A DNA stretch of 64,000 nucleotides from an uncultured Planctomycetia bacterium (GCA_964483625.1 CAZABB010000004.1:6337-70336), one strand, 5' to 3'. Counted from the stretch's first letter, positions 19,440 to 52,399 are shown. The notes: generated by a model from the letters alone, not told the origin. A program made the numbers and translations.

Positions 19440-19457
19440 TTGTGACTTTTTTCACAA
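19440..19457. promoter_or_regulatory. Rex operator (TTGTGACTTTTTTCACAA)
   Basis: Perfect match to the Rex consensus TTGTGAAnnnnTTCACAA. It sits immediately upstream of the -35 of rex. Confidence 0.85.
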
Positions 19458-19482
19458 AATGCTGTGATACATGCCGGATCAA

Positions 19483-20781: not shown

Positions 20782-20852
20782 TCGTCGCTTCGCTCCTTTA
20801 CACTGATGATCACAGATTCCAAACTGATGCTCGCAGATAATTGATCAGTGGT

Positions 20853-21095
20853 TTAATCCATATCGAAAGACACCAGTCTCAGTTCACGCGCCGGGCTCTT
20901 CTCGATCACAAGTGCCGCCCCCTCAAGAACGGTACCGGGAGATTTTTCCTTGAAGAAGAGCCTGAGCACTTCTTCGTTGATTTCGGTGAATTCTCCCATT
21001 TTAAGATACACTTTGGTAATCTTAGCCGCTTTGTTACCGCGGGCGTGATAGAGAATGTCTTCGAAGAGATCTTTCACTAAATGCATTTCATGCAT
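20853..21095 (-). CDS. hypA: HypA-like hydrogenase nickel-incorporation protein lacking the zinc finger (truncated)
   Basis: MHEMHLVKDL… matches the HypA N-domain. The ORF ends before the CxxC…CxxC Zn motif. Confidence 0.6.
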   Translation of the reverse strand: MHEMHLVKDLFEDILYHARGNKAAKITKVYLKMGEFTEINEEVLRLFFKEKSPGTVLEGAALVIEKSPARELRLVSFDMD

Positions 21096-21576
21096 GAGAA
21101 AACTCCTTTCTGATAATCTCAATGATTCTATCGGCCGTTTCTTTTACTGCCGCCGATAATCCTTCTTTAAGGTCTACCGATCCCGGCTGAATACCCAGAA
21201 ATTCCACATCGCCCCCCGTATCTTCGGCAATAAGCCGGGCAATAACTTTGAGTGAGATCATATGGGTACTTAACGCCGTCTCCGGGATTATTTCCTGATC
21301 GACCAGCCGCGCCTGACCGGCCGGGAGGCCGAAATCAGCCGCGTCAATGATCAGAATCCGCGCGGGCTTTACCGCGGCAACCTCATCGATGATATTTTCC
21401 GGGTTCTGCCCGGCATCGATCACCGTAAGCTGCCCGGTATTTTCAAGCTCGGCGGCGATATAGGGACCGACGCCGTCGTCGGAACGCAAACTGTTTCCTA
21501 CAGTAATACATACGGTATGTCCTCCGGGGTGAAAAGAAAGCGCGTTGATTACATCAGCGGTTAACGAACTTGACAT
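21088..21576 (-). CDS. [NiFe]-hydrogenase maturation endopeptidase (HycI/HyaD family)
   Basis: GNSLRSDDGVGPYIA motif characteristic of the large-subunit C-terminal protease. Confidence 0.88.
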   Translation of the reverse strand: MSSSLTADVINALSFHPGGHTVCITVGNSLRSDDGVGPYIAAELENTGQLTVIDAGQNPENIIDEVAAVKPARILIIDAADFGLPAGQARLVDQEIIPETALSTHMISLKVIARLIAEDTGGDVEFLGIQPGSVDLKEGLSAAVKETADRIIEIIRKEFSHA

Positions 21577-22879
21577 TGAGAAAATGCGCCGAACATGATA
21601 TGCAGGGATCGTATGCCCGTACCAGCATCTCCATCGTCAGGGTGATTTCTTCATCGGACTTATCGAGGATTTCCGGCACCAGTTTTTTCATATCCTGTTC
21701 GATACTGTTGACATTCTGCGAGGTAGGGATAATACAGTTGGCATTGACGATCTTCCCCTTATCATCGACCTCGTAGTTATGGAAGAGAAGTCCCCGCGGC
21801 ACCTCCACCGCGCCCACGCCGTTACCGGCTTTGACTGCAATGGTATTGTTTTCGTTTAAGCCGACGACGATCTCTTCATCCCGGTTCACTCCCTTGTTTT
21901 TGAAATGTTCGAGGATGGCGATGGATTCTTCAAGGCTGTGCACACATTCAACCAGCTGAGCCGCGGTATTGAGAAAAGAATTGTAGCAGATTTTATTCAA
22001 TCCGAGAAAATCGGCGACGGCCTTGGCTTTCGGATGCAGTTTTTTATAATTTAAATTCACCCGCGCCAGAGCCCCGACCATATACGACTGGCGGTTCCAT
22101 TTAGCGTGTTTGGCCGAAGAATGCGGCATGACGAATTCATTGGTTACCTCACGATAGTCATGTTTATCCATGCGTTTCCCGTCGGTCGAACCGACATCTC
22201 CCGCGAGCATCGGATACTCGTCGTCATCACTGACCAAACCGACATACTCGGTCTCCCGCTTGAATTCCGGAAATTTCAAGGTCTTACATAACTCAACCGT
22301 CTCCTCCATATCGACACGCATATTGACCAGGATATCCAGCATCGCGTCCAGATCTTTTTCCTTCGGCAGTTTCGTAAACCCGCCTACGATACAGGAAATC
22401 GGATGGATATGCCGGCCGACGAGAATATCACAGACATCGTTACACTGTTTTTTCATCCGCAGGGCGCGCCGGACGACTTTATTGTGACTTTCGATCAGCG
22501 GCACAAAACTCTTAACCCCCAGCAGGTCGGGAGCGACCAGTAAATAGATATGCAAAATATGACTGTCCAGGTTTTCCTGGTGCAGGAGTAATTTCCTTAA
22601 ACGCACGGTCTGCTCCGAAGGAGTAAACCCGATAGCGTCTTCAGCGGCCTGGATCGATGCCAGAGAATGGCCGCAGGCGCAGATACCGCAGATCCGGGAG
22701 GTAATATGCTGCGCTTCGAAAATAGAACGGCCCCGCAGCATACCTTCAAAAAAACGGGGGGACTCGACGATCTCAAGGCGGCATTCTTCCAATTTACCTT
22801 CCTTGACGTTTACGACAATATTCCCGTGTCCCTCGACGCGGGTAAGATATTCGACATTGACTTTAACGTTTCTTGCCAT
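21554..22879 (-). CDS. [NiFe]-hydrogenase large subunit, group 3b (sulfhydrogenase alpha)
   Basis: L1 motif RICGICACGH. C-terminal DPCISCSAH followed by a 9-aa cleavable tail. Confidence 0.92.
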   Translation of the reverse strand: MARNVKVNVEYLTRVEGHGNIVVNVKEGKLEECRLEIVESPRFFEGMLRGRSIFEAQHITSRICGICACGHSLASIQAAEDAIGFTPSEQTVRLRKLLLHQENLDSHILHIYLLVAPDLLGVKSFVPLIESHNKVVRRALRMKKQCNDVCDILVGRHIHPISCIVGGFTKLPKEKDLDAMLDILVNMRVDMEETVELCKTLKFPEFKRETEYVGLVSDDDEYPMLAGDVGSTDGKRMDKHDYREVTNEFVMPHSSAKHAKWNRQSYMVGALARVNLNYKKLHPKAKAVADFLGLNKICYNSFLNTAAQLVECVHSLEESIAILEHFKNKGVNRDEEIVVGLNENNTIAVKAGNGVGAVEVPRGLLFHNYEVDDKGKIVNANCIIPTSQNVNSIEQDMKKLVPEILDKSDEEITLTMEMLVRAYDPCISCSAHFLNVKFVNR

Positions 22880-23630
22880 CTGTTTCTGTCTCCTCCAATT
22901 CACGCGGTTTGTTGTACATATCGATTTTATTCACTACCCAGTCAAGAGGAATATTATGTTTTTCTAAAATATCCATCTGCCCGTTTTTCGCCGGATTCGA
23001 CACCATACCCCGGCAGCCGTAACAGATATTCCCGTTATTGATACACCAGGAATTACACCCGGCGCGGGTTACCGGACCAAGACAGGTAATCCCCTTATCG
23101 TACATGCATTCGTTCTCATTGAGTTTACACTCACGGCAAACGGCGTGATCGGGCACCGTATAAGGAATTCCCTGCAGGGCGCACTTTAATACTTTCACAA
23201 ATTCCGGCTGATACACCGGACACCCGTGCACGAAATAATCCACCTTCACCACCTGGTGCACCGGACAGGTAGGAATGGTCTCAAAATGCTTCGCGCCGTC
23301 TTTATACACGTATTCTTTTATTTCGTTCAGATCAAATTTATTTTTCATCCCGTTGACGCCGCCGATTGTCGCGCAGGATCCGTAGGCGATAAGAACTTTG
23401 GAACGCTTGCGGATGTTCTTGATCCGTTCGACCCCATGCGTTGTGGTAATACTGCCCTCGACGACCGCCACATCGTAGTCGCCGTCCCATTTTTCCGACA
23501 TCGCTTCTCTGAATTCGACGACATCAATTATCTCAAGAATATCAAGCAACGTTTCGCCGAAATTGGCGACCTGAAGCTGGCATCCTTCACAACAAGAGAA
23601 ATCAAAAAAAGCTACTTTTGGTTTTTTCAT
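22863..23630 (-). CDS. [NiFe]-hydrogenase small subunit, group 3 (sulfhydrogenase delta)
   Basis: N-terminal FDFSCCEGCQ proximal-cluster motif; further Cys clusters downstream. Confidence 0.9.
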   Translation of the reverse strand: MKKPKVAFFDFSCCEGCQLQVANFGETLLDILEIIDVVEFREAMSEKWDGDYDVAVVEGSITTTHGVERIKNIRKRSKVLIAYGSCATIGGVNGMKNKFDLNEIKEYVYKDGAKHFETIPTCPVHQVVKVDYFVHGCPVYQPEFVKVLKCALQGIPYTVPDHAVCRECKLNENECMYDKGITCLGPVTRAGCNSWCINNGNICYGCRGMVSNPAKNGQMDILEKHNIPLDWVVNKIDMYNKPRELEETETDGKKR

Positions 23631-23632
23631 AA

Positions 23633-24469
23633 TTATAACGCCTCGATATTATTTTTTATTTTATCGTAAGAAAATACCGGTCCATCCTGACAACAGTACA
23701 CGTCTCCGATCTGGCAATGCCCGCATTTGCCTACGCCGCACTTCATATGCCGCTCCAGCGAAAGATAGATCTGCCTCTCCGGGATCCCTTTCTTTAAGCA
23801 TTCGGCGATAACAAACTTATACATAATCGGCGGGCCGACGACGATTCCGAAAGTACGCTCGGTATCAAGCGTTACACCCGGGATCAGAGACGTGATCAGT
23901 CCGACATTACCTTTCCAATCGGGATCGGCTTTGTCGACAGTACAGTTGAAATTGACATCAAGCCTCTTCTCCCACTGCTCGACTTCCTCGCCAAACAGCA
24001 TATCCTTGGGCGTTTTACAGCCAAGAAGAATACTTACCTTGCCGAAATCACGGCGGTTATCGATCACAAAATTAATCAGCGAACGTAACGGTACAATTCC
24101 CAGCCCTCCGGCGACAAATAACAAATCATTTCCTTCCAGAATCTGTGTAGGGAACCCCACTCCGAACGGACCGCGAATACCGACGGTATCGCCGGCCTTT
24201 AAGCCATGAAGGGCATTCGTTACTTTCCCGACGTTACGCACGACCAGTTCGAAATATCCCCGGATTGTCGGGGAAGAAGAGACCGAAATCGGCGCCTCCC
24301 CCACTCCGGGGAGAGCGACCATAACAAACTGGCCCGGTTCGTGATCGAGACTTTCGCCTCCGGCCAGAGCGATTTTGAAATATTTCTCCTGAGCGGTAAT
24401 CATCTTCGCCTCGAGAATTTCCCCCGTTTTTACGTTATACGCCGATTCTTTTAACGTGACTCGTTTCAT
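23633..24469 (-). CDS. Sulfhydrogenase gamma subunit (FAD/NAD(P)-binding oxidoreductase with a 2Fe-2S cluster)
   Basis: Ferredoxin-NADP reductase-like fold; C-terminal CGVGKCGHCQ…CC cluster. Confidence 0.85.
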   Translation of the reverse strand: MKRVTLKESAYNVKTGEILEAKMITAQEKYFKIALAGGESLDHEPGQFVMVALPGVGEAPISVSSSPTIRGYFELVVRNVGKVTNALHGLKAGDTVGIRGPFGVGFPTQILEGNDLLFVAGGLGIVPLRSLINFVIDNRRDFGKVSILLGCKTPKDMLFGEEVEQWEKRLDVNFNCTVDKADPDWKGNVGLITSLIPGVTLDTERTFGIVVGPPIMYKFVIAECLKKGIPERQIYLSLERHMKCGVGKCGHCQIGDVYCCQDGPVFSYDKIKNNIEAL

Positions 24470-25500
24470 TGTGCTCCTTCGGCTAACTGATTGATTGTTT
24501 CCTTTAAATTAATCCGGGCCATACAGGTGCGCGAACACCGTCCGCACCCGGTACAAAAATACCGGCTGTATTTATCCACCGGGTATTTGAATTTACGCAT
24601 ATACCGGTGCCGCTGGCGGTCACCTCGTTCTTCGCGAAAGTTTTCTCCTCCGGCAACCTCCGCGAACGGTTCACTCTGGCAGGAATCCCAGCGGCGTTTT
24701 CTCCCCCCCGTGGTCAGATTCAAATCAATTTCATCCTCGATATCGAAACAGTAGCAGGTCGGGCACACGTTGGTACAGTTGCCGCAGGCGACACAGCGTT
24801 TATGAAGGTCCTGCCAGACGGGTGACTCGAATGATTTATCAAACAGACTTTTGAGATTATTATGAGTAACGGCAACCTCATCCTTAAAGATCTCGCGTTT
24901 CTTCTTACGCATCGCCTTTAACGCTTCCCGGTGTTCTTCTGTGGCTTTCTGAAACAGTCCGGTTTTTTCAATCAGTTCTTCACCTTCAAGCGTATTGATA
25001 TGCACCATAAAAAAATCATCAAGCTCGGTAAAAAAGAGATCATATCCTCCGTTGGGCAGATGGTTATCCATCACCTTACAGTTGGCGTACTCATCGCAAT
25101 ATTCATTACATTCAAGGCCGATGATCAGAATTCTGTTCTTACGAGCCAGGTAGTTGATATCCTTGGGCTTATCGGAAAACACCATATTCAGGCACTGAAT
25201 ACCGGCCAGATCACAGGTATGCACCCCGAAAATAATCATGTCCTGATATTCCATCACCGCGTTCCAGGCCTTTTTACTTTTATCGTATTGCTGCAGGGTT
25301 TCAGTCTGAGGCAGGAAATACTTCTTCGGCGGAAGGATTGTAGGTATATATTTAAGGGAGACTTCCTTGCCGGAGGCAACTTCCTCGAAGGCGTAATTCT
25401 TTACGCCCCGCTTAACGGGAGCCACGGTCTTTTTTATCTGAGCCAAACGGGAAATGAATTCACTGAGATCTGTTTTATGAAGGATTGCGTATTGCGTCAT
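24466..25500 (-). CDS. Sulfhydrogenase beta subunit (4Fe-4S protein)
   Basis: CVACGNCTNVCPTCYC and CTGCGRCSRTC ferredoxin-like motifs. Confidence 0.85.
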   Translation of the reverse strand: MTQYAILHKTDLSEFISRLAQIKKTVAPVKRGVKNYAFEEVASGKEVSLKYIPTILPPKKYFLPQTETLQQYDKSKKAWNAVMEYQDMIIFGVHTCDLAGIQCLNMVFSDKPKDINYLARKNRILIIGLECNEYCDEYANCKVMDNHLPNGGYDLFFTELDDFFMVHINTLEGEELIEKTGLFQKATEEHREALKAMRKKKREIFKDEVAVTHNNLKSLFDKSFESPVWQDLHKRCVACGNCTNVCPTCYCFDIEDEIDLNLTTGGRKRRWDSCQSEPFAEVAGGENFREERGDRQRHRYMRKFKYPVDKYSRYFCTGCGRCSRTCMARINLKETINQLAEGAQ

Positions 25501-26369: not shown

Positions 26370-27401
26370 TTACTCGTTGGCAAGCAATTTTTCAATCAAA
26401 GCGTAGACTTCATCCGGCGAGATGCTGTCCAGACACAGAAAATCATTCTGACAATCATGCGCCCGGCACACGGGACAATTGACGTTTTTATGGATGAAGA
26501 GGGATTTTTCCCCCAGTGGCCGCCAGCGTGTGGGAGAAAGTCCGGGATTACTCCGTCCGAAAATAGAAATCACCGGAATCCCAAGTGCGGCGGCGATATG
26601 CACGGGACCGGAATCGCCCGAAACAAACAGTTTCGCCCTCTCTAAGAGAGCAGTCAGCTCAAAAAGACTGAGTGCCCCTCTTAAATCGATGACTCCTTCT
26701 TCGCCGGCGACCTCACCGGCAAATTCCTTTTCGCTCTCAGCGGTGGTTACCACAACCGGCAGGTTCAGATTTTGCCTGATCTTTTTTATCAGCGCGACGA
26801 AAGAACGCTGTTTCCATCGTTTCGACGGACAGGATGCCGCAGGATGGATCACCACAAAATCCTGTCCTTCATCGATCCCTTTCTTTTTAAGCATTTCCCC
26901 GACACTGCGCCGTGCCGAATCCTTTACCGGGACAAAAAGCGGCACATCACGCACCTGGATATCCAGCGCCCGCAGGATATCCAGCGTGTATTCACTTTCG
27001 TGTTTTTCCCCGCGGTGTTTACGGTGCGGTATTTTCTCGGTCAAAAGCCAACTCAGGTTACGATCCCACCCCACTCGTGTTTTAATCCCCGCAAGATAAG
27101 CGATCAGATGGGCCCGATTGGTAGGATGAAGAACAACGGCCAGATCGAAATTTTTCCGTCTTAAATCCCGCGCGAACCGCCACGTCGCGGGGAAACTCTT
27201 ATGAATCCCGTACTTATCGTACACGATAACCTCATTTACCTCGGGATTGTCTTCAAGCAGACCACGCGTATACGGCCGGCACATAAAAGCGATATAACTA
27301 TCGGGATAAGCCCGGCGCAGATTGCTGATAACAGGGACCGAAAGGACGACATCCCCCATCCGGTCGGTACGAATGATCAGAATGCGTTTGAACGGTTTCA
27401 T
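26370..27401 (-). CDS. Glycosyltransferase family 9 (LPS heptosyltransferase-like)
   Basis: ILIIRTDRMGDVVLSVP N-terminal GT9 motif. Confidence 0.85.
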   Translation of the reverse strand: MKPFKRILIIRTDRMGDVVLSVPVISNLRRAYPDSYIAFMCRPYTRGLLEDNPEVNEVIVYDKYGIHKSFPATWRFARDLRRKNFDLAVVLHPTNRAHLIAYLAGIKTRVGWDRNLSWLLTEKIPHRKHRGEKHESEYTLDILRALDIQVRDVPLFVPVKDSARRSVGEMLKKKGIDEGQDFVVIHPAASCPSKRWKQRSFVALIKKIRQNLNLPVVVTTAESEKEFAGEVAGEEGVIDLRGALSLFELTALLERAKLFVSGDSGPVHIAAALGIPVISIFGRSNPGLSPTRWRPLGEKSLFIHKNVNCPVCRAHDCQNDFLCLDSISPDEVYALIEKLLANE

Positions 27402-28321
27402 CCCCGCAGGATCACCTCCACCGCGCCGGCGACTGATTCCGGATCGATATTCATGCATATGTTTTCATTTTCGCATTCGGTCCCCTCACACGACACACAC
27501 GGGACGTCACTATGCTGCAACACCACCGATTTATTTGAAAGCGGCTTCGAACGTGCCGGGAGCGTCGGGCCAAACAATCCTACCACGGGAATATCCAGGT
27601 AGGAAGCCAGATGCATGAGGCTGGAATCGACGGCAATCAATACCCGGCAGTACTTTTTCATCAGATAAAAGACATCGGCCAAACCGGTTTTATCCACCAG
27701 ATCGATTACTCCTTCTCTGGCAGGAATATCGCGATAAAACTGGCGGTCTTTTTGTGTCCCGAAGATCATGACCGGATACCGGGTCCTCAATATATCGACA
27801 AGGCGGGCGACATTTTCATACGGATACTCCTTCAGGTGAAACCGGGAAGAACAGGCTACTCCCACTGACGGGGCAAGATCGAATCTTTCCCATCTTTCTT
27901 TTTCACTCAGAGACAGCAGGCAGTCGCTTTTCTCCCCATGTTCGGGACAACCAAGCGGTTCGATCAGTTTCAGATACTTACGCGTAATATGGTCGCCAGG
28001 AGAAAACCGGCGAAGATACGACGTGCGCCAGGCAGGGCCAATAAAAACCGGCAGAAGAGAATTCTTAAGGTCAACGACGATATCGAATCGTCTCCACAGT
28101 TTGAGGGCAAACTTCATCTTCCGGAAAACCGGCCAGCGTTTATTAAAAACGCGCACCGCATCGATATGGCTCATGCGGCTCAAAAAGTCTTGAGTTGCCG
28201 GCGAAGCGATCGCGGTGATCGTCCCGCCGCAATAGCAGGCATGAATTTTATCCAGGACGGGCAAAGCAAGAAAAACATCGCCGATATTGGTAGGAAAATT
28301 AATCAGGATCCGTTCACTCAT
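27398..28321 (-). CDS. Glycosyltransferase family 9 (heptosyltransferase-like)
   Basis: ILINFPTNIGDVFLALP GT9 motif. Confidence 0.85.
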   Translation of the reverse strand: MSERILINFPTNIGDVFLALPVLDKIHACYCGGTITAIASPATQDFLSRMSHIDAVRVFNKRWPVFRKMKFALKLWRRFDIVVDLKNSLLPVFIGPAWRTSYLRRFSPGDHITRKYLKLIEPLGCPEHGEKSDCLLSLSEKERWERFDLAPSVGVACSSRFHLKEYPYENVARLVDILRTRYPVMIFGTQKDRQFYRDIPAREGVIDLVDKTGLADVFYLMKKYCRVLIAVDSSLMHLASYLDIPVVGLFGPTLPARSKPLSNKSVVLQHSDVPCVSCEGTECENENICMNIDPESVAGAVEVILRG

Positions 28322-29327
28322 TACCTAAAACCCTCCGGGCTTCCAGGAACACATCCTCAACCTTAACCGAACGCATGCAGAAATTATCCTCGCAGTCGGT
28401 GTTATAACACGGTATCGCACAGGAAACATCGCTCCGTATGACACGGACGTTTTCTCCCCGTGGCGCGGTCACACAAGGATCGGTCGGCCCGAAGACCACA
28501 AGGGCCGTGGTCCCGCACGCTGCCGCAAGATGCGCGGGCCCGGAATCGTTTGAGACAAACAGATCGAAATGCTCCATCAACGCGGCAAGCTCAAGCAACG
28601 TCGTCTGGCCGCAGAAATCGTAATACGCGCTATTGCGCATCTTCCCGGTAACCTCAGCAACACGTTCGGTTTCTTTGGCGGCTCCGACAAAACATATACC
28701 GCAATCAAGTTCTTCGATGAGCCGGTCACACAATTGACTGAAATGGTCCGCCGGCCAGCGTTTCAAATCCCAGTTCGCCGAAACATTGATTCCCACCAGA
28801 AACCGGTGAGCTCCTTCGGCGGAACTGATACGGTAATACATCGCCGTACGGGTATCTTCATCCACATACATCCGGGGAACTTCTTTTTCCACGGGAATCC
28901 CCACTTCCCGGAAAAGATGCAGGTAGCGTTTCTGCCGATGCCCTCCCTTCGGAAACGGTTTAATTCTTACCGTCAGAAGCCACGCCGTCTTTATCCTGCG
29001 ATACCCCACGCGACGGGTAATGCCGGCAAGGACGCAAAGCATGAGGCGGGTAAACGAACGATGAATACAGATTGCCGTATCGATTTTTTTTCTTCGCAAC
29101 TGGGACACAAATCTCATCTTTGCCGCGAGGCCGCGATGAGTCGTACGTTCGTCAAACAGGATCACCTCATCGATAAAGGGATTGGCATCAAAAAGACCGC
29201 GGATACGCGGCGGCACCATGACCGCGACGTATGATGCCGGACGCGCCGCCTTGATCGCCTCAAACGCCGGAAGCGTCATCACACAATCTCCCAGCCAATT
29301 CACGTTAGCAACAAGGATTCTTTTCAT
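28314..29327 (-). CDS. Glycosyltransferase family 9 (heptosyltransferase-like)
   Basis: ILVANVNWLGDCVMTLP GT9 motif. Confidence 0.85.
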   Translation of the reverse strand: MKRILVANVNWLGDCVMTLPAFEAIKAARPASYVAVMVPPRIRGLFDANPFIDEVILFDERTTHRGLAAKMRFVSQLRRKKIDTAICIHRSFTRLMLCVLAGITRRVGYRRIKTAWLLTVRIKPFPKGGHRQKRYLHLFREVGIPVEKEVPRMYVDEDTRTAMYYRISSAEGAHRFLVGINVSANWDLKRWPADHFSQLCDRLIEELDCGICFVGAAKETERVAEVTGKMRNSAYYDFCGQTTLLELAALMEHFDLFVSNDSGPAHLAAACGTTALVVFGPTDPCVTAPRGENVRVIRSDVSCAIPCYNTDCEDNFCMRSVKVEDVFLEARRVLGNE

Positions 29328-29410: not shown

Positions 29411-30181
29411 TCAATAAGGATTCTTCGGTTTTTTGAATACGTTGTAAAATCCGCTCAGTTTCGCCCAGAAACGGAACCCCACGTCACGCTCGGTAATCTT
29501 TATCCGTCTGAGCGCGTACCGGTCCTTTCTTCGCGAAAATCCCCGGTTGGTCGTACAGGCGCACAGATATCCCGCTTCCTTTACCTGACGCAGGACTCTC
29601 TTATCGAACCCGCCGACAGGATAGGTTATCGTCTCAACCGGCACTGTGAAGGTTTCTTCCAGTATTCTCCTGGATTCTTTTATTTCCCGGATGACTTCCT
29701 CCTCTGTCGCCCGGGGAAGGTAGCGGTGAGAGAGTGTATGAGAACCGATTGTAACCGGGGTCTCCGAAAGGATCTGCTTGATTTCCCGCGAAGAAAGATA
29801 CTTTTCTTTATCGATATTGTCCACAATCAGAAAGATAGTCGCCGCAATATCAAGCTCATCCAGGATCTCCACCGCGCCGACATTATCACGATGGCCGTCA
29901 TCGAACGTGATCACCACGGTATTGCGTGCGATATCCTCGCCGCTTTTGAGCCGGGTACAATATTCATCTAAAAGGATCACCTGGTATCCCTTCTCCTTTA
30001 TATATTCCATCTGGGTTCGAAAACTCTCCGGCAACACCACCGAATATTCACCCAGCCGCGCCGCATCCAGAGAATGGTACATGAGAATCGGCACCTCGTA
30101 TTGAGGATACAGCCACACAAAAAAGCTCAAAAAAAGGATACCTACCACCCCCGCCAAAAAAAGGAGTAACTTTCTTCTCAT
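29411..30181 (-). CDS. Polysaccharide deacetylase (NodB domain), membrane-anchored
   Basis: ITFDDGHRDN motif; N-terminal TM segment. Confidence 0.85.
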   Translation of the reverse strand: MRRKLLLFLAGVVGILFLSFFVWLYPQYEVPILMYHSLDAARLGEYSVVLPESFRTQMEYIKEKGYQVILLDEYCTRLKSGEDIARNTVVITFDDGHRDNVGAVEILDELDIAATIFLIVDNIDKEKYLSSREIKQILSETPVTIGSHTLSHRYLPRATEEEVIREIKESRRILEETFTVPVETITYPVGGFDKRVLRQVKEAGYLCACTTNRGFSRRKDRYALRRIKITERDVGFRFWAKLSGFYNVFKKPKNPY

Positions 30182-31242
30182 CGTAATACCTCCCGCAATA
30201 CTTCCTCGGTATCGACAACCATCTGTTCCAGGGTGAACTTTTTAAGCGTCTCGACCCCGTGCAAGATCAAATGTTCCCTAAAAGACTTGTCACCGGTGAC
30301 CCGACTGAGTGCCTCGAGTAATTTTTCAGCGCTGTATTCCAAAAAGAGAACCCCGTTTGAAGAATCGGCAACAATCTCTTTTATTCCTCCGGTCGCATAC
30401 GCCACGACCGCGACTCTCTTGGCAAACGCCTCCAGGATAATATATCCGAATCCTTCTTTTGAAGAGGCGACAATGAGAATATCGATTGCATCAAGAAACT
30501 CTTCCCCGTCGAGCGAGACAAAGGTAACATCATCCTCTACCCCCAGACGAACGACGTAATCCTGTAATTTCTTCTTTAGTTTTCCTTCCCCCGAGATAGA
30601 AAGAGATATCTTGTGTTCGCCTCTCTCTTTATATAATTTTAACGCATCAACGACAAGGAAATGTCCTTTTTCGGCCGAAATCCTTCCCAGAATACCCACG
30701 CGAATCTTCTCCCGATCGCCTCCGGCGGTATCCTGAGAACTCCGGAAAGACTCAGCGTCAATCCCGTTATACACGACTCTGATATTGTGCGGCGCGACAC
30801 AAAAATCATCGACCAGGTGCTGTTTCACCGCGCCGCTGACAGCAAGCGAACGAACCCCTTCGAATTTCCACATTTTACGCATCATATGCGGTTTATAAAA
30901 GCCGTGAAACCCGGAAATATAAGGAATCCCTACGGCACGATAGATCAGGTAGGCGAGAAACTGAGTAACCCGGGTATGCGCGCAGATAACGTCTATTTTA
31001 TTATGCACCAGAAACGGGAGCAGTTTAAAAAAAGAGAAAAATATCTTCGGACTTATCATACATTTTGTCGAAAACGGCAGAGATAGGCAGTCAACCGAAT
31101 CTCTCGGCAGCCGGTCCTGCCAGTTCCCGCCACGGGAGCCGACCCATACGCGGTGCCGTGCCGACAGCCCCACGGCCAGATTGATCACATACCGGGTCAA
31201 TCCGCCGCGGTCCAGGTGATTGGTGAGTATCAGAATATTCAT
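30178..31242 (-). CDS. Glycosyltransferase family 4
   Basis: GT-B retaining family; EGFGYIILEA motif. Confidence 0.85.
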   Translation of the reverse strand: MNILILTNHLDRGGLTRYVINLAVGLSARHRVWVGSRGGNWQDRLPRDSVDCLSLPFSTKCMISPKIFFSFFKLLPFLVHNKIDVICAHTRVTQFLAYLIYRAVGIPYISGFHGFYKPHMMRKMWKFEGVRSLAVSGAVKQHLVDDFCVAPHNIRVVYNGIDAESFRSSQDTAGGDREKIRVGILGRISAEKGHFLVVDALKLYKERGEHKISLSISGEGKLKKKLQDYVVRLGVEDDVTFVSLDGEEFLDAIDILIVASSKEGFGYIILEAFAKRVAVVAYATGGIKEIVADSSNGVLFLEYSAEKLLEALSRVTGDKSFREHLILHGVETLKKFTLEQMVVDTEEVLREVLR

Positions 31243-31313: not shown

Positions 31314-33383
31314 CTATTCCTTTAATAAAGATTTAGGTTTACCCAGGATACTCTGTATCCTCATGAATATTTCCTGGGGAGTAATCTTTGCCATACAGAT
31401 ATTATCTTTACATACCGGCTTGTAACAAAACGAACAGGGAATCTTTCGTACCACCAGATGAAGATAATCGCTTTTTACCGTATGCCGGGCCGGATCGGTC
31501 GGCCCGAACAAGGCGATCACCTTAATCCCCAGCGCGCAGGCCAGATGCAGGGGAGCGGTATCCTGAGTAATGAATATCTGCAAGCGAGAGAGAACGTGCA
31601 CCAGGTCTCTTAAGTTAGTTTTACCGCAAAGGTTCACGATCGAGCCCGGCGCTATTTTTTCAAACTGCCTGGATTCGATTTCACTGTGATGGTCACCGAG
31701 CAACGCGATTTTTACATGCGGATATTCTCTTAAGATCATCTCGATAAGCTTCCTGGTATTCTCTTTCGGCCAGTTCTTACTCTGCCATTTAAATGAGGCC
31801 GACATGTTGATCCCGATTACAGTCTCACCGGAGAAATCCCACTTTTCCCCGGCATCTTTTTTCGTCTCCCATAACGCGAGCTTTTTATCAACCAGGTCGA
31901 TACCGGCCAGCCGCAGGATCCGACTTTGCGATTCCAGAGGCGACACCGCCTCTTTAGGCATCGGCAGGTGATGGGTCAAAATACTTCCCCATTTACGGGA
32001 ATATCCGAATGATTTTTGCCCGAATGCCAAAAAAGCAATCAGGTGTGAAACCCGACTGTTCTGAAGATCGATCGTATAATCAAAACTTTCCCGCCGCAAA
32101 CTGTGACTTAACCTGATTATATGACGCAGTTTTTTATAATCGGCGTCGAGACCGATAACTCTGTCCACATAAGGACATTCATAAAATAAAGATACGTATT
32201 TTTTCAGCGTCAAAAGCACCACTTCACTGTCGGGATGCTGGTTTTTGATCGCTTTCAAAGAAGGAATGGATAAAATCACGTCTCCCAAAGAAGATATTTT
32301 CATAACCAGTATTCTCTTATGCCGCAGGGTCTCCTCATACACCTTCTCCACCTCCCGAACACAATGAGAAAAAGAATAAAGTGTTTCTACCTTACGGCGG
32401 GCGTTCTCCACCATATTCTGCACAAAGGACGGATTATTGATAATCTCCAGGAGTCCCTCGGCAATACTGTCGGCATTACGGGGAAACGCCAGGATCCCGT
32501 CATGCCGGTGCTCGATGATCTCCTCCAGCGCCCCCATGCGTGTGGCAACGACCGGGACTCCTGAGGCAAAGGCTTCGATAACAACCCGGCCGAACGCTTC
32601 CTCCACAACCGAGGGGATCACCAGAGCAAAGGCTTCATCCAGGAGCTCGTTGACATTATCCCGGTATCCCAGAAAACGTACCTGGTAATTCAACGCGTAA
32701 CGGGTAACCAGACTTTTCAACGACTGGAAATATTTCATTCGGGACTCCTCCGGCTCTCCCACGATCGTAAGCGTCAGATAGGGATTATGCCGGGCGATCT
32801 TCCGGAACGCTTCGATAAGATACTCGTAGCCTTTGGAAGGGGAAATACGGCCGATACTTAAAATCGAACTGCACAACCGCCGCTCTTTCTGCGGTTTGAA
32901 CGTAAATTTATCCAGATCCACCCAGCGCGGAATACATCGTATCTTATTCTCACTCACGCCGAAGTTATCCATCATGTGCCGGATGATACTTTTGGAAGGG
33001 CAAATCACGAATTTTCCCCATCCCATCACCTCACTGAATCCATGAACGGAATAGGCTCCGTGCGCGGTAGTTACAAACGGAACATTCAATCCCCGCGTCG
33101 CGAAAAACGCGATCCAGGCCGGGACACGGGAACGCGCGTGGACGATATCGATATTCTCCTCTTTGATGATCCGCCGCAGTTTCCTGATATACATCAAACT
33201 CACGATTGATTTACGGTAAACCGGAAGCTGATAATGTTTCACCCCGGACTTCTCTAACGCCTCAACGAGCCTGCCGCCGCCGGAGACCACGACCATCTCT
33301 TGGGCAAAATGCGGGGCAAAATCAAGGACCCCCCTCTCGACACCGCCGATATTCATTCTGGGTAAAATCTGCAATACCTTCAT
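31314..33383 (-). CDS. Bifunctional glycosyltransferase: GT4 (N-terminus) fused to GT9 heptosyltransferase-like (C-terminus)
   Basis: N-terminal ~350 aa is GT4 (EAFGRVVIEA). C-terminal ~330 aa is GT9 (ILVMKISSLGDVILSIP). Confidence 0.82.
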   Translation of the reverse strand: MKVLQILPRMNIGGVERGVLDFAPHFAQEMVVVSGGGRLVEALEKSGVKHYQLPVYRKSIVSLMYIRKLRRIIKEENIDIVHARSRVPAWIAFFATRGLNVPFVTTAHGAYSVHGFSEVMGWGKFVICPSKSIIRHMMDNFGVSENKIRCIPRWVDLDKFTFKPQKERRLCSSILSIGRISPSKGYEYLIEAFRKIARHNPYLTLTIVGEPEESRMKYFQSLKSLVTRYALNYQVRFLGYRDNVNELLDEAFALVIPSVVEEAFGRVVIEAFASGVPVVATRMGALEEIIEHRHDGILAFPRNADSIAEGLLEIINNPSFVQNMVENARRKVETLYSFSHCVREVEKVYEETLRHKRILVMKISSLGDVILSIPSLKAIKNQHPDSEVVLLTLKKYVSLFYECPYVDRVIGLDADYKKLRHIIRLSHSLRRESFDYTIDLQNSRVSHLIAFLAFGQKSFGYSRKWGSILTHHLPMPKEAVSPLESQSRILRLAGIDLVDKKLALWETKKDAGEKWDFSGETVIGINMSASFKWQSKNWPKENTRKLIEMILREYPHVKIALLGDHHSEIESRQFEKIAPGSIVNLCGKTNLRDLVHVLSRLQIFITQDTAPLHLACALGIKVIALFGPTDPARHTVKSDYLHLVVRKIPCSFCYKPVCKDNICMAKITPQEIFMRIQSILGKPKSLLKE

Positions 33384-35194
33384 AGTATCTTTCTCAATGC
33401 TTTCTGGAGCCTGTTCTCATTTTCTTCTTTCAACGACCCCGAAGGCCTGCGGAAATCAAACCTCCCATAGGGAGCATGAAACACATTCACGTAATCGGAT
33501 TCCAGTGAGTGAAGGAACCGCCGGTGTGTCTTTGAAGTGAGCTCTTCAAAAACCACCGCGACCGTTGTTTTATCCAGATACAGGCTTTCGGAAATCATCG
33601 ACACGCTTTCAGCGGAAACAAACACAATATTACTCTCAGAGAGAAACGTCGGGATCACAAACGGGTAATTCTCGCCGCTGGCAATCACCAAGGCCTCGGT
33701 ATGCTCAAAGCCGGCAAATTCCTCACGGACAAGCGCCTCGACATCCTTACTGGTACGCCGCGAAGTCGTGATCAGAATCCCGTAATTCTGTTCTGAGACG
33801 AACTGTTTAAGCCGCGCGGCAAATTCCCGAACGTTAGCTCGGTACGTTTTTTCATCCTCCAGCGCGTTCCCCACGCACAGACAGACTTTCTCTTTTTGAG
33901 ACAATCGAAAATGCTTCCGGCCCGTCTCGATCAAATCCGGATCATACTGCTGCCGGGCCAGGGCGCCTTTGGTCACGACCACGTTTTCGCCGTCTACCCC
34001 GTCATGTTCGGGTATGATCGCCACATCGAACCGCGACAGCGGGACATTGGGCTTTAAGATAACGCATGATCTAGCGCCACAGGCACGCGCATAGAGCACG
34101 TTTGCCGCCGCGGGTGACGAACCCGTCGAAATAACAATATCATAAAACCTGCCCTGCAATTTGTCGAACACTTCTTTTGAGAGGAAAAATCTCAAGCCCC
34201 GTGTATTCCCCAGACAATGCCGCCCGGCAAATACCGAAAGCGCCTCGACGATACAGCGCGTGAATTTATTCCGATAAGCTATCTCCACGACATCGTATTC
34301 GGTCCGATATCCGCTTTGCGCGATTGAGTCAGCCACAATCAGCGATTGCTTGAGATGCCCGGCTTTTCCGTCGCTTAAAACAAGTATCTTCCGGTTTTGT
34401 TTGCGTTTAAACCGCTTAAACCACCACATGTAATCATAAGGATGCCGGCGTAAAAAATCCTCATATCTGCGATTGATGGTACCTAAGAGCTCTTCATCGG
34501 GGGTTTGCTCATCACAACAAACAGGATCAGCGATGATAAACACATGCTCCCGGCCGCTGCGGTATCCAAACGTCGGGAATATTCTCTTATGAAACCTCTT
34601 GGCCAGAGTAACCGCTCCGCCCGGCGTCGGCACCAGGTGCCCGAAAAATTCGGCGGTTTTGGCGTTTTCCTCGGCACCGTGATCGACGACCAGGCCGACC
34701 CAGATATCTTTTTTCACCGCGGCAATAACTTCTTTCAGGGTATAACAGGGCTTTACCCGATGGGCCCGCCGCAATTCGTTTAAAAACCTGTCCAGCGACC
34801 TGTTTTTTTGCCGGCCGACCAGCAACGTCAGAGGAGCCTCGGACGCGACCACGGCATGATATGATTCCCAGTTGCCCTGATGGATACCAACGAAGATCTC
34901 CCCTCTTTCTGCCAGCTGATCGGTCCACTCTTTTCTCACCCGTTCTTTGACTTTATCGCCGAGGAATGTCTCGATGATATTCATGCCGAACGAAATAAAA
35001 CTGCGGCGAAGGATATAAAAGAGTTCGCGGTTACTTTTTTCCGGGAACGCCTGCTTGACATTGATAAAGGCGGTATTACGTTTCCGGCGGTTTAAGTAGA
35101 AACAGAATCCGATAACCCGCCCGATCCAGAGAGCCGCCGCCAGCGGGATGACATGAAGGAAACGATACATGGCTTTTAACAGAAAATAGGTCAT
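33380..35194 (-). CDS. Lipid A biosynthesis lauroyl/myristoyl acyltransferase (LpxL/HtrB family) fused to an ELM1/DUF1022-like domain
   Basis: N-terminal ~280 aa is LpxL-like with an HQGNWE catalytic motif. The C-terminus begins ILVLSDGKAGHLKQSL, which is typical of ELM1-family proteins. Confidence 0.75.
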   Translation of the reverse strand: MTYFLLKAMYRFLHVIPLAAALWIGRVIGFCFYLNRRKRNTAFINVKQAFPEKSNRELFYILRRSFISFGMNIIETFLGDKVKERVRKEWTDQLAERGEIFVGIHQGNWESYHAVVASEAPLTLLVGRQKNRSLDRFLNELRRAHRVKPCYTLKEVIAAVKKDIWVGLVVDHGAEENAKTAEFFGHLVPTPGGAVTLAKRFHKRIFPTFGYRSGREHVFIIADPVCCDEQTPDEELLGTINRRYEDFLRRHPYDYMWWFKRFKRKQNRKILVLSDGKAGHLKQSLIVADSIAQSGYRTEYDVVEIAYRNKFTRCIVEALSVFAGRHCLGNTRGLRFFLSKEVFDKLQGRFYDIVISTGSSPAAANVLYARACGARSCVILKPNVPLSRFDVAIIPEHDGVDGENVVVTKGALARQQYDPDLIETGRKHFRLSQKEKVCLCVGNALEDEKTYRANVREFAARLKQFVSEQNYGILITTSRRTSKDVEALVREEFAGFEHTEALVIASGENYPFVIPTFLSESNIVFVSAESVSMISESLYLDKTTVAVVFEELTSKTHRRFLHSLESDYVNVFHAPYGRFDFRRPSGSLKEENENRLQKALRKIL

Positions 35195-36216
35195 ACCGTA
35201 AGATTTAACCGGTCGGCGACCGCGGCAAAAAATTTCTGCGGCTCATCGATGCACAATTCTACCTGCAGGATGAAATAATTGATCCGCCGGTGCGTGAAAT
35301 CGATATGGTAATAATCCTTATACGTTATCAAAACGTCACTGATACTGTTTTTCAGGAATTCTCTCTCGATCCGACGAAGCTGTTCCCCTTTGAACTCATA
35401 ATGATCCGGATAGACAAGTGTTTTATCCGAAGTAAATCCCGCCTCTGCGATCTTCTGCCGGAAACCTTCCGGGTACCCGATAGCTGTCAGCGTGCCGATT
35501 TTCTTACCGGAAAGATACTGGTGCGGCACACGTTTGAGGTTATGATCCAGAATACCGGCCACCTTATAGTCGGCAGCACATATAAACGCGTTTTTATTCA
35601 CCCGCCGAATACGCCGGCTCAGGCCAGGCAATTCCTGATCCGTACAATAAGAAACAACGATGATATCGGCCCGCTTAAGATTACCGAACGGTTCCCGGAA
35701 AGGTCCCGCGGGAATAAGCCGGGTCCTTTGGGCCAATTCGTGCTTATTGATCAATACGATATCCACATCACGTACCAGGGCCCGGTACTGAAATCCGTCA
35801 TCGAGAAGGAACACATCATATTCAGGCTCCCGTTTACACACAAGCCTCAGCCGGTTACGGGCATCGTAGACGCTGCTGGTATTGCGCCGGATAAGCGCGT
35901 ATTCATCCCGGGCATATCCTTTCGTAACGATACAGGTGCGGACATGGGGTTTAAGTTTATTATATAGATACAGAACCATACTGGTCTTACCCGTCCCCCC
36001 CCAGGAAAGGTTGCCGATACTGACAACTTTTTTCTTTGACCAGTATCTTCCTAAAAATCCGCGGTCATAAAAAACGTTACGCGCGGTTACGGCGGCGGCA
36101 TACAAAAAAGAAAGGAGCACGAGACAGAAAAAAAGGACCTGATGCCCCAGCGGACGGTTCTTCTCTTTCAGTAACTTCAAATACTTCTGTTTTAATCCAA
36201 CAAGCGGCGGATACAT
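35191..36216 (-). CDS. lpxK: Tetraacyldisaccharide 4'-kinase
   Basis: Walker A SIGNLSWGGTGKTS. Confidence 0.9.
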   Translation of the reverse strand: MYPPLVGLKQKYLKLLKEKNRPLGHQVLFFCLVLLSFLYAAAVTARNVFYDRGFLGRYWSKKKVVSIGNLSWGGTGKTSMVLYLYNKLKPHVRTCIVTKGYARDEYALIRRNTSSVYDARNRLRLVCKREPEYDVFLLDDGFQYRALVRDVDIVLINKHELAQRTRLIPAGPFREPFGNLKRADIIVVSYCTDQELPGLSRRIRRVNKNAFICAADYKVAGILDHNLKRVPHQYLSGKKIGTLTAIGYPEGFRQKIAEAGFTSDKTLVYPDHYEFKGEQLRRIEREFLKNSISDVLITYKDYYHIDFTHRRINYFILQVELCIDEPQKFFAAVADRLNLTV

Positions 36217-37487
36217 GCGACACTGTTCTCCAGAGTTTTATGTCCTTCCTCGAATATCTGGTGGCTGTTCTGCACCAGTTCCTGGCGAAGGTCACTGTCG
36301 GTAATCAACTCTTCGATTTTGACGGTAAGTTCTTTTTCGTTTTTAACCGGTATGCCCGCCTGATGCTTGAGCACGACATTTTCTATTTCCCGGAAATTAT
36401 CCATATGCGGGCCGAAAAGTGTCGGTTTGGAAAAGTACAGCGGTTCCAGGATATTATGCCCGCCGGTATCAGCCAGGCTCCCTCCCACAAAACAGATATC
36501 AGCCACCGCGTAACAGGAAAGAAGATCTCCCACCGTATCCACCAGGAAAACATCGTCGCCGGATGAGGCCCGGGAAAACCCTTCGCTTAAAAGCGTTACG
36601 CCGAATCCTTCCTGAATATACTGCTGTTTTATCTGCCCGGCACGCTCGATATGGCGGGGAACGACCATCAACCGCAGGGAAGGATATGCGCCGTGAAGCG
36701 ACCGGAAACAATCGAGGATAATTTTTTCCTCCGGATTGTGGGTGCTGGCGGCGACCAGAAGCATCGTCCCCTGGGGTTTCAGCCGTGAATAATACTTCTC
36801 TTTAAACGCGGCAATGCGATCTCTCTTTATATGATAGTTGCTGAACTTAAGGTTCCCGGTAATAACGATCTTACGGGAAGAAGCCCCCAGGGCCAGGAAC
36901 CGATCCCGGTAAAACTCGTTCTGCACCCCGATACAATCAGCGAGGTTCAATATTTTTTTGACACCACCGTATACCCGCCGATAACGGGAAAACGCCTTTT
37001 CCGAGATCCTCCCGTTTAAGATCACTATTCGCACGGCGTGTTTTTTGAGTTGCAGGTAAAGGTTCGGCCACATTTCCGTTTCGATAGAGATAAACATGGC
37101 CGGCTTCACCAGCCGGATGACACGACGGATAAAAACACTCACATCGAAAGGGAAATAGATCACCAGGTGTTCTGGATAAAGCCTGGCGGCAACCTTGTGA
37201 CCGGTAAGTGTCGTAACCGAAATCGCCACGTCATATCCCAGTTGACGTTCGAGATATTCGACCAGAGATTGAATCAGGGTAACTTCCCCCACACTGACCA
37301 CCTGAATCCATATCGTCCGTTTCAATCGTAACGCGTTCTGCCGGATAGACTCAGGATACAGCGTGCATTTCTGCCGAAGGGCCTCAGGCGTGATCTTCCT
37401 GCGGGCAAAATGGAACGGCAGATACACGACGGCGCCCAGAATAAATACGATATCGTACAGTAACGACAAAAAACGCATTGTTCTCAT
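36192..37487 (-). CDS. waaA: 3-deoxy-D-manno-octulosonic acid (Kdo) transferase
   Basis: N-terminal signal-anchor plus GT30 family with WIHVVSVGE-type motif (QVVSVGEV). Confidence 0.9.
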   Translation of the reverse strand: MRTMRFLSLLYDIVFILGAVVYLPFHFARRKITPEALRQKCTLYPESIRQNALRLKRTIWIQVVSVGEVTLIQSLVEYLERQLGYDVAISVTTLTGHKVAARLYPEHLVIYFPFDVSVFIRRVIRLVKPAMFISIETEMWPNLYLQLKKHAVRIVILNGRISEKAFSRYRRVYGGVKKILNLADCIGVQNEFYRDRFLALGASSRKIVITGNLKFSNYHIKRDRIAAFKEKYYSRLKPQGTMLLVAASTHNPEEKIILDCFRSLHGAYPSLRLMVVPRHIERAGQIKQQYIQEGFGVTLLSEGFSRASSGDDVFLVDTVGDLLSCYAVADICFVGGSLADTGGHNILEPLYFSKPTLFGPHMDNFREIENVVLKHQAGIPVKNEKELTVKIEELITDSDLRQELVQNSHQIFEEGHKTLENSVACIRRLLD

Positions 37488-43654: not shown

Positions 43655-44149
43655 TCATTTAATCTTCAACACCAGCGCCGTTTCCCGGCACTGATTGGGA
43701 AAATCAACGCAATGAATACATTCGTTCCATATCTTATGAGGCAGCTTATTCTTATTGATCTTCTTAAACCCCAGTTTTCTAAAGAACTCATCGACGTAGG
43801 TAAGCGTAAAAACATTTTTCACGCCAAGCTCTTTTGCCTCGGAGACACAGGCTGTAACCAGTTTTTTCCCAATGCCGCGTCTATGCCTGGTTTTACGGAC
43901 AACCAGCGATTTCACCTCCGCCAGATCATCCCATCCCACGATATGCAGGGCGCAGGCACCGAGGATAGTGTCTCTCTCCTGGTACACCCAGAAATCACGG
44001 ATATGTTCGAAGATATAATTCAGCGGGCGATTTAAAACTTTGCCTTCTTTTGTCCAGAAAGCGATCAGTTTCTGGATTTTCCTGGCGTCGGCGATTCGCG
44101 CTTTCCTCAACATAGGGTTATATAATTCGAACGGATTTAAGGATTTCAA
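43655..44149 (-). CDS. GNAT family N-acetyltransferase
   Basis: RHRRGIGKKL acetyl-CoA binding motif. Confidence 0.8.
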   Translation of the reverse strand: MKSLNPFELYNPMLRKARIADARKIQKLIAFWTKEGKVLNRPLNYIFEHIRDFWVYQERDTILGACALHIVGWDDLAEVKSLVVRKTRHRRGIGKKLVTACVSEAKELGVKNVFTLTYVDEFFRKLGFKKINKNKLPHKIWNECIHCVDFPNQCRETALVLKIK

Positions 44150-44154
44150 ACATC

Positions 44155-44718
44155 TTAGAAAAACGAGGCGACCCCGGCCAGCACCATATCCACATCGATC
44201 CCTTTATTCGGTTGATCAAAGCCCGCGTTCGACAGGTGACGCCGGCGGTATTCAACGGTCACAGCTTTCTTCTCGTTGAAGAACCAGTGAAATCCCATCC
44301 CGACCTGCGGCGTAAAATTAAACTGAGTTCCCTGCTCCCGTGTCGGCATGGTCATATAAATCATCCCGGCCCCGCCTTTTAGATACACTTTGAATTTCTC
44401 TCCCCACGGAAAGGTATATTTCATCAGAAAATTGGTAAAAATCTCGGCGTTTGCTTCCGGGTCAAACACGATCGTCACTCCCGGTTCGACGACAAAATCC
44501 AGCTGTCCTTTCAGATCGAGCGAAAACTTCTCCTGAACCGGGGTGGAATCGAAATTAAACGCGACCAGAAACGGCATCCCGTTTAAGGAACCCTTTTCTT
44601 TGACCTTCCCGTTTATCCAGCCGGAAAGGAACTCGGTCCCGCGTACGGATAAAGATGCCGCGGGCAGGTGGAAAACAAACAAAGAACAACAAAACAGCAA
44701 AATTGCTCTTCTTTTCAT
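44155..44718 (-). CDS. Outer-membrane lipid A 3-O-deacylase (PagL-like) beta-barrel
   Basis: Signal peptide. HLSNAG (His/Ser catalytic pair as in PagL HxSNG). C-terminal aromatic residue. Confidence 0.6.
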   Translation of the reverse strand: MKRRAILLFCCSLFVFHLPAASLSVRGTEFLSGWINGKVKEKGSLNGMPFLVAFNFDSTPVQEKFSLDLKGQLDFVVEPGVTIVFDPEANAEIFTNFLMKYTFPWGEKFKVYLKGGAGMIYMTMPTREQGTQFNFTPQVGMGFHWFFNEKKAVTVEYRRRHLSNAGFDQPNKGIDVDMVLAGVASFF

Positions 44719-52398: not shown

Positions 52399-52399
52399 T

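Follow-up and report, generated by a model that had tools for sequence, protein, structure and literature searches.

A late acyltransferase fused to an ELM1/KdoT-family glycosyltransferase domain in a conserved lipopolysaccharide core operon of Omnitrophota

Results

A two-domain protein encoded by a single open reading frame

The window analysed here is a stretch of 64,000 nucleotides (nt) from an uncultured Planctomycetia bacterium (GCA_964483625.1, CAZABB010000004.1:6337-70336). Its minus strand carries, within a cluster of lipopolysaccharide (LPS) genes, a gene in which a late acyltransferase of the LpxL type is joined to a glycosyltransferase (GT) domain of the ELM1 family. The parts of this fusion gene are given below, with positions in the protein in amino acids (aa) and the basis of each assignment in brackets.

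33380-35194, minus strand: whole fusion gene, LpxL-type acyltransferase plus ELM1/KdoT-type GT-B glycosyltransferase (604 aa, two Pfam domains)
34403-35185, minus strand: LpxL/HtrB-type late acyltransferase domain, aa 4-264 (PF03279, E 4e-30)
35093-35161, minus strand: N-terminal hydrophobic helix, aa 12-34, FLHVIPLAAALWIGRVIGFCFYL, probable membrane anchor (hydropathy, model)
34865-34882, minus strand: catalytic H-x4-E motif HQGNWE, H105 and E110 (translation, conservation)
34379-34402, minus strand: LpxL-ELM1 junction, about 8 residues, aa 265-272 (alignment of fusion homologues)
34343-34387, minus strand: family motif LSDGKAGHxxQ (ILVLSDGKAGHLKQS), aa 270-284 (alignment, translation)
33488-34363, minus strand: ELM1/GtrOC1/KdoT-family GT-B glycosyltransferase domain, aa 278-569 (PF06258, E 2e-35)
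33752-33763, minus strand: SRRT motif, S478 R479 R480 T481 (translation, alignment)

The open reading frame (ORF) starts with ATG and runs through its 604 codons without interruption. A first-pass annotation, made from the sequence alone, had described the product as an LpxL enzyme fused to an ELM1/DUF1022 domain, and profile scans bear this out: within the one ORF, PF03279 (Lip_A_acyltrans) matches at 105.4 bits against a cutoff of 22.3 and PF06258 (Mito_fiss_Elm1, formerly DUF1022) at 122.6 bits against a cutoff of 27, both far above the Pfam thresholds. The two sequence strings on which that description relied were found as well, HQGNWE at aa 105-110 and the ELM1 family motif at aa 270-284.

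The junction links the end of the LpxL domain (YPxEYxWxxKRFK) to strand beta-1 of the GT-B domain, and its own sequence is kept among 82 fusion homologues (YPxEYxWxxKRFKRK followed by ILVLSDGKAGH), in which mean conservation is 0.506 over the LpxL half and 0.502 over the ELM1 half. An AlphaFold model of the full-length protein has a predicted local distance difference test score (pLDDT) of 95.5 and a predicted template modelling score (pTM) of 0.92, and pLDDT stays high across the junction. These values imply that the two domains would be held in a fixed mutual arrangement, rather than as two beads on a string.

The fusion is typical of the Omnitrophota

A HMMER scan of 1.84 billion cluster representatives (clusters at 50% identity) returned 224 clusters at E <= 1e-30; of the top 150, almost every one is a protein of 600-690 aa that matches across both domains in a single stretch. 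The exact protein of the window is not in the public collection, its closest relative there being 57% identical. Among species-representative genomes, 312 stretches encode a relative; the locus counts given here and below use the 80 best, which match over essentially the full length of the fusion. Their record titles name almost exclusively Candidatus Omnitrophota; 'uncultured Planctomycetia/Planctomycetales' appears in some and 'Methanosarcinales' in one. The fusion is genuine and characteristic of the uncultured Omnitrophota phylum, to which the window itself therefore probably belongs.

The trivial explanation for such a protein would be an artefact, two adjacent genes joined by a faulty assembly or by a frameshift in sequencing. 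A single-base error could indeed fuse genes arranged as they are in a Sulfurospirillum metagenome-assembled genome (MAG), where a 288-aa LpxL gene overlaps the start of a separate 283-aa ELM1 gene by 4 nt and a GT4 gene comes next. However, both domains lie in a single ORF at 79 of the 80 loci, which come independently from MAGs, single-amplified genomes and complete-genome sequences, and the 80th locus ends at a contig edge. The number of distinct clusters, with their nearly uniform full-length matches, and the conservation of the junction sequence itself also tell against an artefact, which the comparative data rule out and to which we attach practically no weight.

A divergent LpxL+ELM1 fusion, 25% identical, is encoded outside any LPS cluster in the NCBI MAG GCA_053991635.1 (locus L002, 8882-10633), where its neighbours are NfeD/Band_7 genes and a gene for a pyridine-nucleotide oxidoreductase. 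Either this is a copy that has moved, or the two domains were joined independently.

The N-terminal half carries the features of a late acyltransferase

The HQGNWE sequence had been proposed as the catalytic motif, an assignment that conservation among the 82 fusion homologues confirms: the motif is near-invariant, H105 and the downstream R142 are each present in at least 95% of them, E110 in 81 and D171 in all 82. The same four residues are invariant in an 81-sequence alignment. The fusion-family profile recognises Acinetobacter baumannii LpxM (PDB 5KN7) with E 4.6e-43, and a Foldseek comparison of the full-length model with the same structure gives E 1.4e-12. A signal-anchor had also been predicted, and aa 12-34 are hydrophobic and helical in the AlphaFold model, consistent with a probable membrane anchor; the Kyte-Doolittle mean over 19 residues, a crude measure, is 1.78, and 47 of the 82 family members reach 1.6.

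This half thus has in common with Escherichia coli LpxL and A. baumannii LpxM the PF03279 domain, the H-x4-E motif, the Arg and Asp residues, the N-terminal hydrophobic helix and the fold, and its expected acceptor is likewise lipid IVA bearing two 3-deoxy-D-manno-octulosonate residues (Kdo2-lipid IVA). Unlike them, it continues C-terminally into a GT-B domain of 335 aa. All 17 matches to NCBIfam equivalog models fall far under their cutoffs, the best being NF006270 with 72 against 248 bits. The LpxL half is therefore a family-level member, with no specific assignment to LpxL, LpxM, LpxP or LpxJ.

The C-terminal half is a homologue of the Kdo transferase KdoT

When the C-terminal domain was searched in isolation, PF06258 was the only significant family (E 7e-36), and no NCBIfam model matches this half. 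Acinetobacter proteins named 'ELM1/GtrOC1 family putative glycosyltransferase' match it at E ~1e-10, covering 80% of the domain at 26-30% identity. One of them carries the residue numbering of the KdoT paper (MHIVYVSD8GKAGH13...) and is encoded between ilvE and aspS, where the A. baumannii outer-core locus begins.

The first-pass annotation held that the function of ELM1 proteins in bacteria was unknown, a view that is now outdated: in 2024-2025 the ELM1-family protein A1S_2903 of A. baumannii (KdoT/GtrOC1) was demonstrated to be a CMP-Kdo:Kdo2-lipid IVA KdoIII transferase, which adds a third Kdo (PMC10936431, PMC12856342). Purified KdoT moves Kdo from CMP-Kdo onto Kdo2-lipid IVA in vitro and is inactive on lipid IVA, so that Kdo addition is not started by this enzyme; it converts about 40% of tetra-acylated Kdo2-lipid IVA against about 20% of hexa-acylated lipid A, and its activity depends on R180 of the conserved SRRT motif (PMC12856342). 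Acinetobacter homologues and a distant Rickettsia homologue functionally replace it (PMC12856342). Fusions are not mentioned in that paper.

In an alignment, KdoT residues D8, H13, H109 and D110 correspond to D275, H280, H397 and D398 of the fusion, and the KdoT sequence S-R179-R180-T to S478-R479-R480-T481, R480 being the counterpart of the essential R180. S478, R479 and R480 are invariant in a 17-sequence alignment that includes A. baumannii KdoT and are kept in 80 of the 82 fusions, while D275, G279, H280 and Q283 of the family motif are kept in all 82. The donor-site motifs as a set (SRRT, HD, GG and [D/E]SxSM) are near-invariant among these fusions.

The conservation of these motifs bears on the idea that the ELM1 half is a non-catalytic adaptor or scaffold that tethers LpxL to other core-assembly enzymes, as has been proposed for the plant protein. 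Arabidopsis ELM1, which gives the Pfam family its name, has been described as a recruitment factor for DRP3A; moreover, alanine swaps at D8, H13, H109 and D110, made singly, leave KdoT functional in A. baumannii, where KdoT and the GT4 enzyme GnaT are co-dependent in vivo (PMC12856342). Against an adaptor, purified KdoT transfers Kdo by itself in vitro (PMC12856342), the donor-site motifs are nearly fixed in the fusions, and the ELM1 domain is conserved as strongly as the LpxL catalytic core. We therefore consider a purely structural role improbable. The plant protein shares PF06258 with the fusion but acts at the mitochondrial outer membrane and has no LPS context, and, applied to bacterial proteins, the name of the family misleads.

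A conserved LPS core operon surrounds the fusion

The neighbouring LPS genes all lie on the same strand as the fusion.

36192-37487, minus strand: waaA, Kdo transferase of family GT30 (PF04413, E 1e-47; NF004388, E 2e-87)
35191-36216, minus strand: lpxK, tetraacyldisaccharide 4'-kinase (PF02606, E 5e-57; TIGR00682 above cutoff)
31314-33383, minus strand: GT4+GT9 fusion, 689 aa (Pfam GT4 at aa 12-330, GT9 at aa 423-658)
30178-31242, minus strand: second GT4 (Pfam)
29411-30181, minus strand: polysaccharide deacetylase (Pfam)
28314-29327, 27398-28321 and 26370-27458, minus strand: three GT9 genes (Pfam)

The fusion thus sits two genes downstream of waaA, in the lpxK-waaA-heptosyltransferase context that had been noticed at first pass, with the three GT9 genes (26370-29327) and the GT9 domain just downstream bringing the number of GT9 (heptosyltransferase-family) domains in the operon to four. 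ATGA overlaps occur at both of its ends, between the lpxK stop and the fusion ATG and between the fusion stop and the start of the GT4+GT9 gene.

The order waaA-lpxK-[LpxL+ELM1]-[GT4+GT9]-GT4-deacetylase-GT9s is conserved. lpxK is directly upstream of the fusion at 75 of 75 loci and waaA upstream of lpxK at 52 of 63; a GT4 is directly downstream of the fusion at 72 of 72 and is joined to a GT9 in 67 of 68. A contig from a Joint Genome Institute (JGI) metagenome is syntenic with the window over 16 genes, though its fusion protein is only 41% identical, and the order of GT4, deacetylase and three GT9 genes is repeated both in this contig and across the Omnitrophota loci.

At 43655-44718 on the minus strand of the window, a gene for a PagL-like outer-membrane lipid A 3-O-deacylase (PF09411, E 1.5e-17) adjoins a GNAT acetyltransferase gene, and the same pair occurs in the syntenic JGI contig. 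This pair suggests that lipid A is remodelled in the lineage that bears the fusion.

The ELM1 half is distinct from LpxB and WaaA

The candidate roles put forward at first pass included both a missing LpxB-like step and a Kdo-modifying step. For the first of these, the ELM1 half would stand in for LpxB, the lipid A disaccharide synthase, in a lineage without a GT19 enzyme. It is indeed a GT-B fold enzyme encoded beside lpxK, whose product uses the product of LpxB, and family scans found no lpxB within the window. Likewise, tblastn searches with E. coli LpxA, LpxB, LpxD and FabZ of the window together with 82 loci (1.23 Mb of Omnitrophota DNA, about 8 kb on each side of the cluster) returned no matches. 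The absence of lpxB from these flanks says nothing, however, because lpxA and lpxD are equally absent there. In one complete-genome locus, the DNA upstream of the fusion holds rearranged housekeeping genes and a CTP_transf_3 gene, and none for lipid A.

The domain itself speaks against a replacement of LpxB. The isolated C-terminal domain does not match PF02684 (LpxB) even at E <= 10, and hhalign gives a probability of 0.3% for the ELM1 half against E. coli LpxB, so that the ELM1 assignment survives the comparison, PF06258 being the only family that the domain matches. Similarity to WaaA is also lacking, with 4.8% in hhalign against an Omnitrophota WaaA profile and no PF04413 match in the fusion. 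Among remote profiles, the donor-binding lobe of GT9 enzymes comes closest, at 72%, which is still weak. An AlphaFold model of the domain alone (pLDDT 96.7) has two Rossmann-like lobes, and its top 50 fold matches in the PDB are all GT-B proteins, glycosyltransferases and UDP-sugar 2-epimerases, with query-normalised template modelling (TM) scores of 0.34-0.56. They include WecB, TreT, WaaF (1PSW), WaaG and a CMP-sugar polysialyltransferase (TM 0.45-0.56, at most 14% identity), and LpxB and WaaA are both outside these 50.

Acinetobacter, which hosts ELM1 homologues, has a canonical lpxB. Moreover, the activity proven for the family lies downstream of WaaA (PMC12856342). Taken with the profile and fold comparisons, these points make the LpxB step very unlikely and favour the Kdo-related one. 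The ELM1 half thus shares with LpxB membership of the GT-B superfamily and a place in the lipid A pathway, without sequence or profile similarity. With WaaA/KdtA it has in common the GT-B fold and the operon and, as judged from KdoT, would share the donor CMP-Kdo and lipid IVA-type acceptors, but the two belong to separate families. Because similarity to LpxB and WaaA is absent, the fold matches are generic to GT-B and the homology is to KdoT, we conclude that this half represents a GT-B family of its own, in which all members characterised so far transfer KdoIII.

No structure of the ELM1 family came up when PDB sequences were searched with profiles. The Rickettsia 'glycosyltransferase' 7mi0, considered as a candidate, was rejected, since the family profile does not recognise it.

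Unfused relatives link ELM1 to a GT4 enzyme across phyla

Standalone ELM1 genes occur in other lineages. The Sulfurospirillum genes described above have the order seen in the window, LpxL-ELM1-GT4, and their GT4 appears to be orthologous to the one downstream of the fusion, the difference being that LpxL and ELM1 are separate polypeptides. In Dethiosulfovibrio the order is lpxK-kdsA-kdsD-waaA-...-kdsB-...-ELM1-GT4, which places the homologue among genes of Kdo synthesis and transfer. On another metagenome contig a standalone ELM1 gene is followed by [GT4+GT9]-GT4-deacetylase and three GT9 genes, the same downstream series as in the window, but it is preceded by a GT9 gene and not by LpxL.

The GT4 enzymes that follow ELM1 score 188 bits (Sulfurospirillum) and 127 bits (Dethiosulfovibrio) against the GT4 part of the GT4+GT9 protein of the window, and only 65 and 76 bits, respectively, against its second GT4. 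This preference argues that ELM1 and GT4 form a conserved pair across phyla, which by analogy may parallel the partnership of KdoT with GnaT, also a GT4, in Acinetobacter.

Two alphaproteobacteria-like loci (L087, 7001-11455, and L088, 5519-9876) carry a trio made up of an ELM1 gene, a gene for a double-PAP2 phosphatase of the LpxE/LpxF-like family and a gene for a protein of about 640 aa without a Pfam match. This trio hints at functional diversity, with another lipid A-related role for this glycosyltransferase family. In Dethiosulfovibrio (locus L084, 1-1727), the gene upstream of kdsA encodes 759 aa with an LpxK domain, about twice the normal length of LpxK, which suggests another fusion in the lipid A pathway.

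Other features of the window

Several further features lie outside the LPS operon. The region 17220-25500 on the minus strand carries hydrogenase-related genes: at 19483-20781 it encodes a 432-aa protein with an N-terminal HypC/HupF [NiFe]-hydrogenase chaperone domain followed by a HydE-like radical-SAM maturase (TIGR03956, 227 bits, just below the cutoff of 254.6). Beside it are a Rex-like regulator and a clear HydG (17220-18722), whose 458 bits exceed the cutoff, and it is adjoined by a HycI protease (21088-21576) and a group-3b-like [NiFe] sulfhydrogenase set (21554-25500). The combination of [FeFe]-type maturases with a [NiFe] hydrogenase and a HypC-HydE fusion is unusual.

The stretch at about 50800-56000 is low in GC (0.39-0.45 against about 0.49 elsewhere) and adjoins a tRNA-Pro (52400-52478). 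ORFs within it have no or marginal family matches (52651-53481; 53778-54554, the latter with a weak BamE-like C terminus), and the stretch may be an acquired island. Two more fusions, on the minus strand at 2986-4047 and 7624-10512, join Sua5/YrdC to a low-molecular-weight phosphotyrosine phosphatase (353 aa) and PurS to the N terminus of PurL (962 aa); both are typical of a streamlined genome.

Discussion

The central proposal of the first-pass annotation, an action of the ELM1-like domain on lipid A or the inner core, is supported by the domains, the motifs and the cluster context. We consider it probable that the protein is a bifunctional, inner-membrane-associated LPS enzyme, whose LpxL half adds a secondary acyl chain and whose ELM1 half adds an inner-core sugar, most likely Kdo. 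Starting from the architecture, the motif conservation, the fold, the homology to KdoT, the synteny and the unfused counterpart, we infer the donor sugar, the linkage, the sequence in which the two reactions occur and a GnaT-like role for the GT4 as follows.

LpxL depends on Kdo and takes Kdo2-lipid IVA as its substrate, as established by E. coli biochemistry. WaaA would make Kdo2-lipid IVA, the acceptor shared by both halves, and the N-terminal helix would anchor the fusion at the inner membrane. There, with H105 and E110 as its dyad, the LpxL half would transfer an acyl chain from its carrier to the Kdo-bearing lipid A precursor. With CMP-Kdo as donor, held in position by the SRRT arginines, the ELM1 half would place an extra Kdo, third or branching, on Kdo2-lipid IVA or lipid A. 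The GT4+GT9 protein may then extend the core from the added sugar, as GnaT does after KdoT in Acinetobacter. The two halves would be fused through a short and rigid junction because both work on the same membrane-bound intermediate, and the preference of KdoT for the tetra-acylated intermediate (PMC12856342) is in keeping with an enzyme that encounters its substrate at the stage where LpxL acts.

The comparison with A. baumannii KdoT carries much of this proposal. Both proteins have PF06258, a GT-B fold and the DGKAGH, HD, GG, SRRT and [D/E]SxSM motifs; both are encoded with LPS core genes, including a polysaccharide deacetylase, and both are followed, functionally or genomically, by a GT4 enzyme. 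On the other hand, KdoT is a standalone peripheral protein of 294 aa, whereas here the domain is joined behind an LpxL domain with a probable membrane anchor and is 26-30% identical, and the Omnitrophota operon contains GT9 domains whereas the Acinetobacter core has no heptose.

This last difference is one of several points that weigh against Kdo addition as we propose it. The KdoIII of A. baumannii occupies O5 of KdoI, which is the position of heptose I in heptose-containing cores. With four GT9 domains in this operon, the linkage or the acceptor may differ in Omnitrophota. Family scans found no kds genes within the window. In an all-versus-all comparison the ELM1 clades are arranged in a star, roughly equidistant at 50-130 bits, and the Omnitrophota domain is placed neither nearer to KdoT nor further from it than other clades are; the motifs are family-wide, so that the donor sugar cannot be fixed from sequence alone. 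The two alphaproteobacteria-like homologues adjoin a PAP2 phosphatase and not Kdo genes. As for the LpxL half, the equivalog scores given above (72 against 248 bits at best) do not fix its chain and positional specificity.

In a rival reading with the same bifunctional architecture, the ELM1 half adds a sugar other than Kdo, for instance a hexuronic acid, a hexose or a heptose, to Kdo2-lipid A or to lipid A; PF06258 would then comprise several specificities, with KdoIII transfer confined to the Acinetobacter and Rickettsia members. The equidistant clades and their shared motifs do not tell specificities apart, the alphaproteobacteria-like members are paired with phosphatases and a large unknown protein, the best remote affinity is to the GT9 donor-binding lobe and not to WaaA, the window has no nearby kds genes, and its four GT9 domains may need a free O5 on KdoI. 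Nevertheless, KdoIII addition is what all characterised members point to, five from Acinetobacter and one distant one from Rickettsia (PMC12856342); the SRRT arginines, for which a contact with the Kdo carboxylate has been proposed, are strictly conserved, and the Dethiosulfovibrio homologue lies among kdsA, kdsD, kdsB and waaA. We hold a non-Kdo donor to be plausible but less likely, and prefer Kdo as the sugar added by the ELM1 half.

Both enzyme families were already known, and the role of ELM1 in bacteria was resolved in 2024-2025. What appears to be undescribed is the covalent LpxL-KdoT fusion, its standing as a phylum-wide trait of Omnitrophota within a conserved core operon, and the linkage of LpxL, ELM1 and GT4 across phyla. 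Searches of the literature turned up no mention of the fusion and nothing relevant on LPS or lpxB in Omnitrophota. The fusion provides independent 'Rosetta-stone' evidence that ELM1-family proteins share a step and a lipid intermediate with LpxL, and it carries the discovery of KdoT beyond Acinetobacter and Rickettsia into at least three more phyla. It also means that a wrong or incomplete annotation is attached to thousands of database entries, under the names 'mitochondrial fission ELM1 family protein' or simply 'lauroyltransferase'. Naturally fused constructs could aid work on the structure and mechanism of KdoT and on the coupling of acylation to core extension.

For the uncultured Omnitrophota, the compact and conserved LPS core operon is a signature. 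More speculatively, the LpxL-KdoT and GT4-GT9 fusions may together form an assembly line of two polypeptides, in which Kdo2-lipid IVA is handed directly from late acylation to inner-core branching and extension; or else the donor or linkage may differ from that of KdoT and yield a so far undescribed type of inner core. If the assembly line is true, acylation and core glycosylation would be obligatorily coupled in Omnitrophota, and the mutual dependence, so far unexplained, that KdoT and GnaT show in vivo in Acinetobacter would find a physical explanation.

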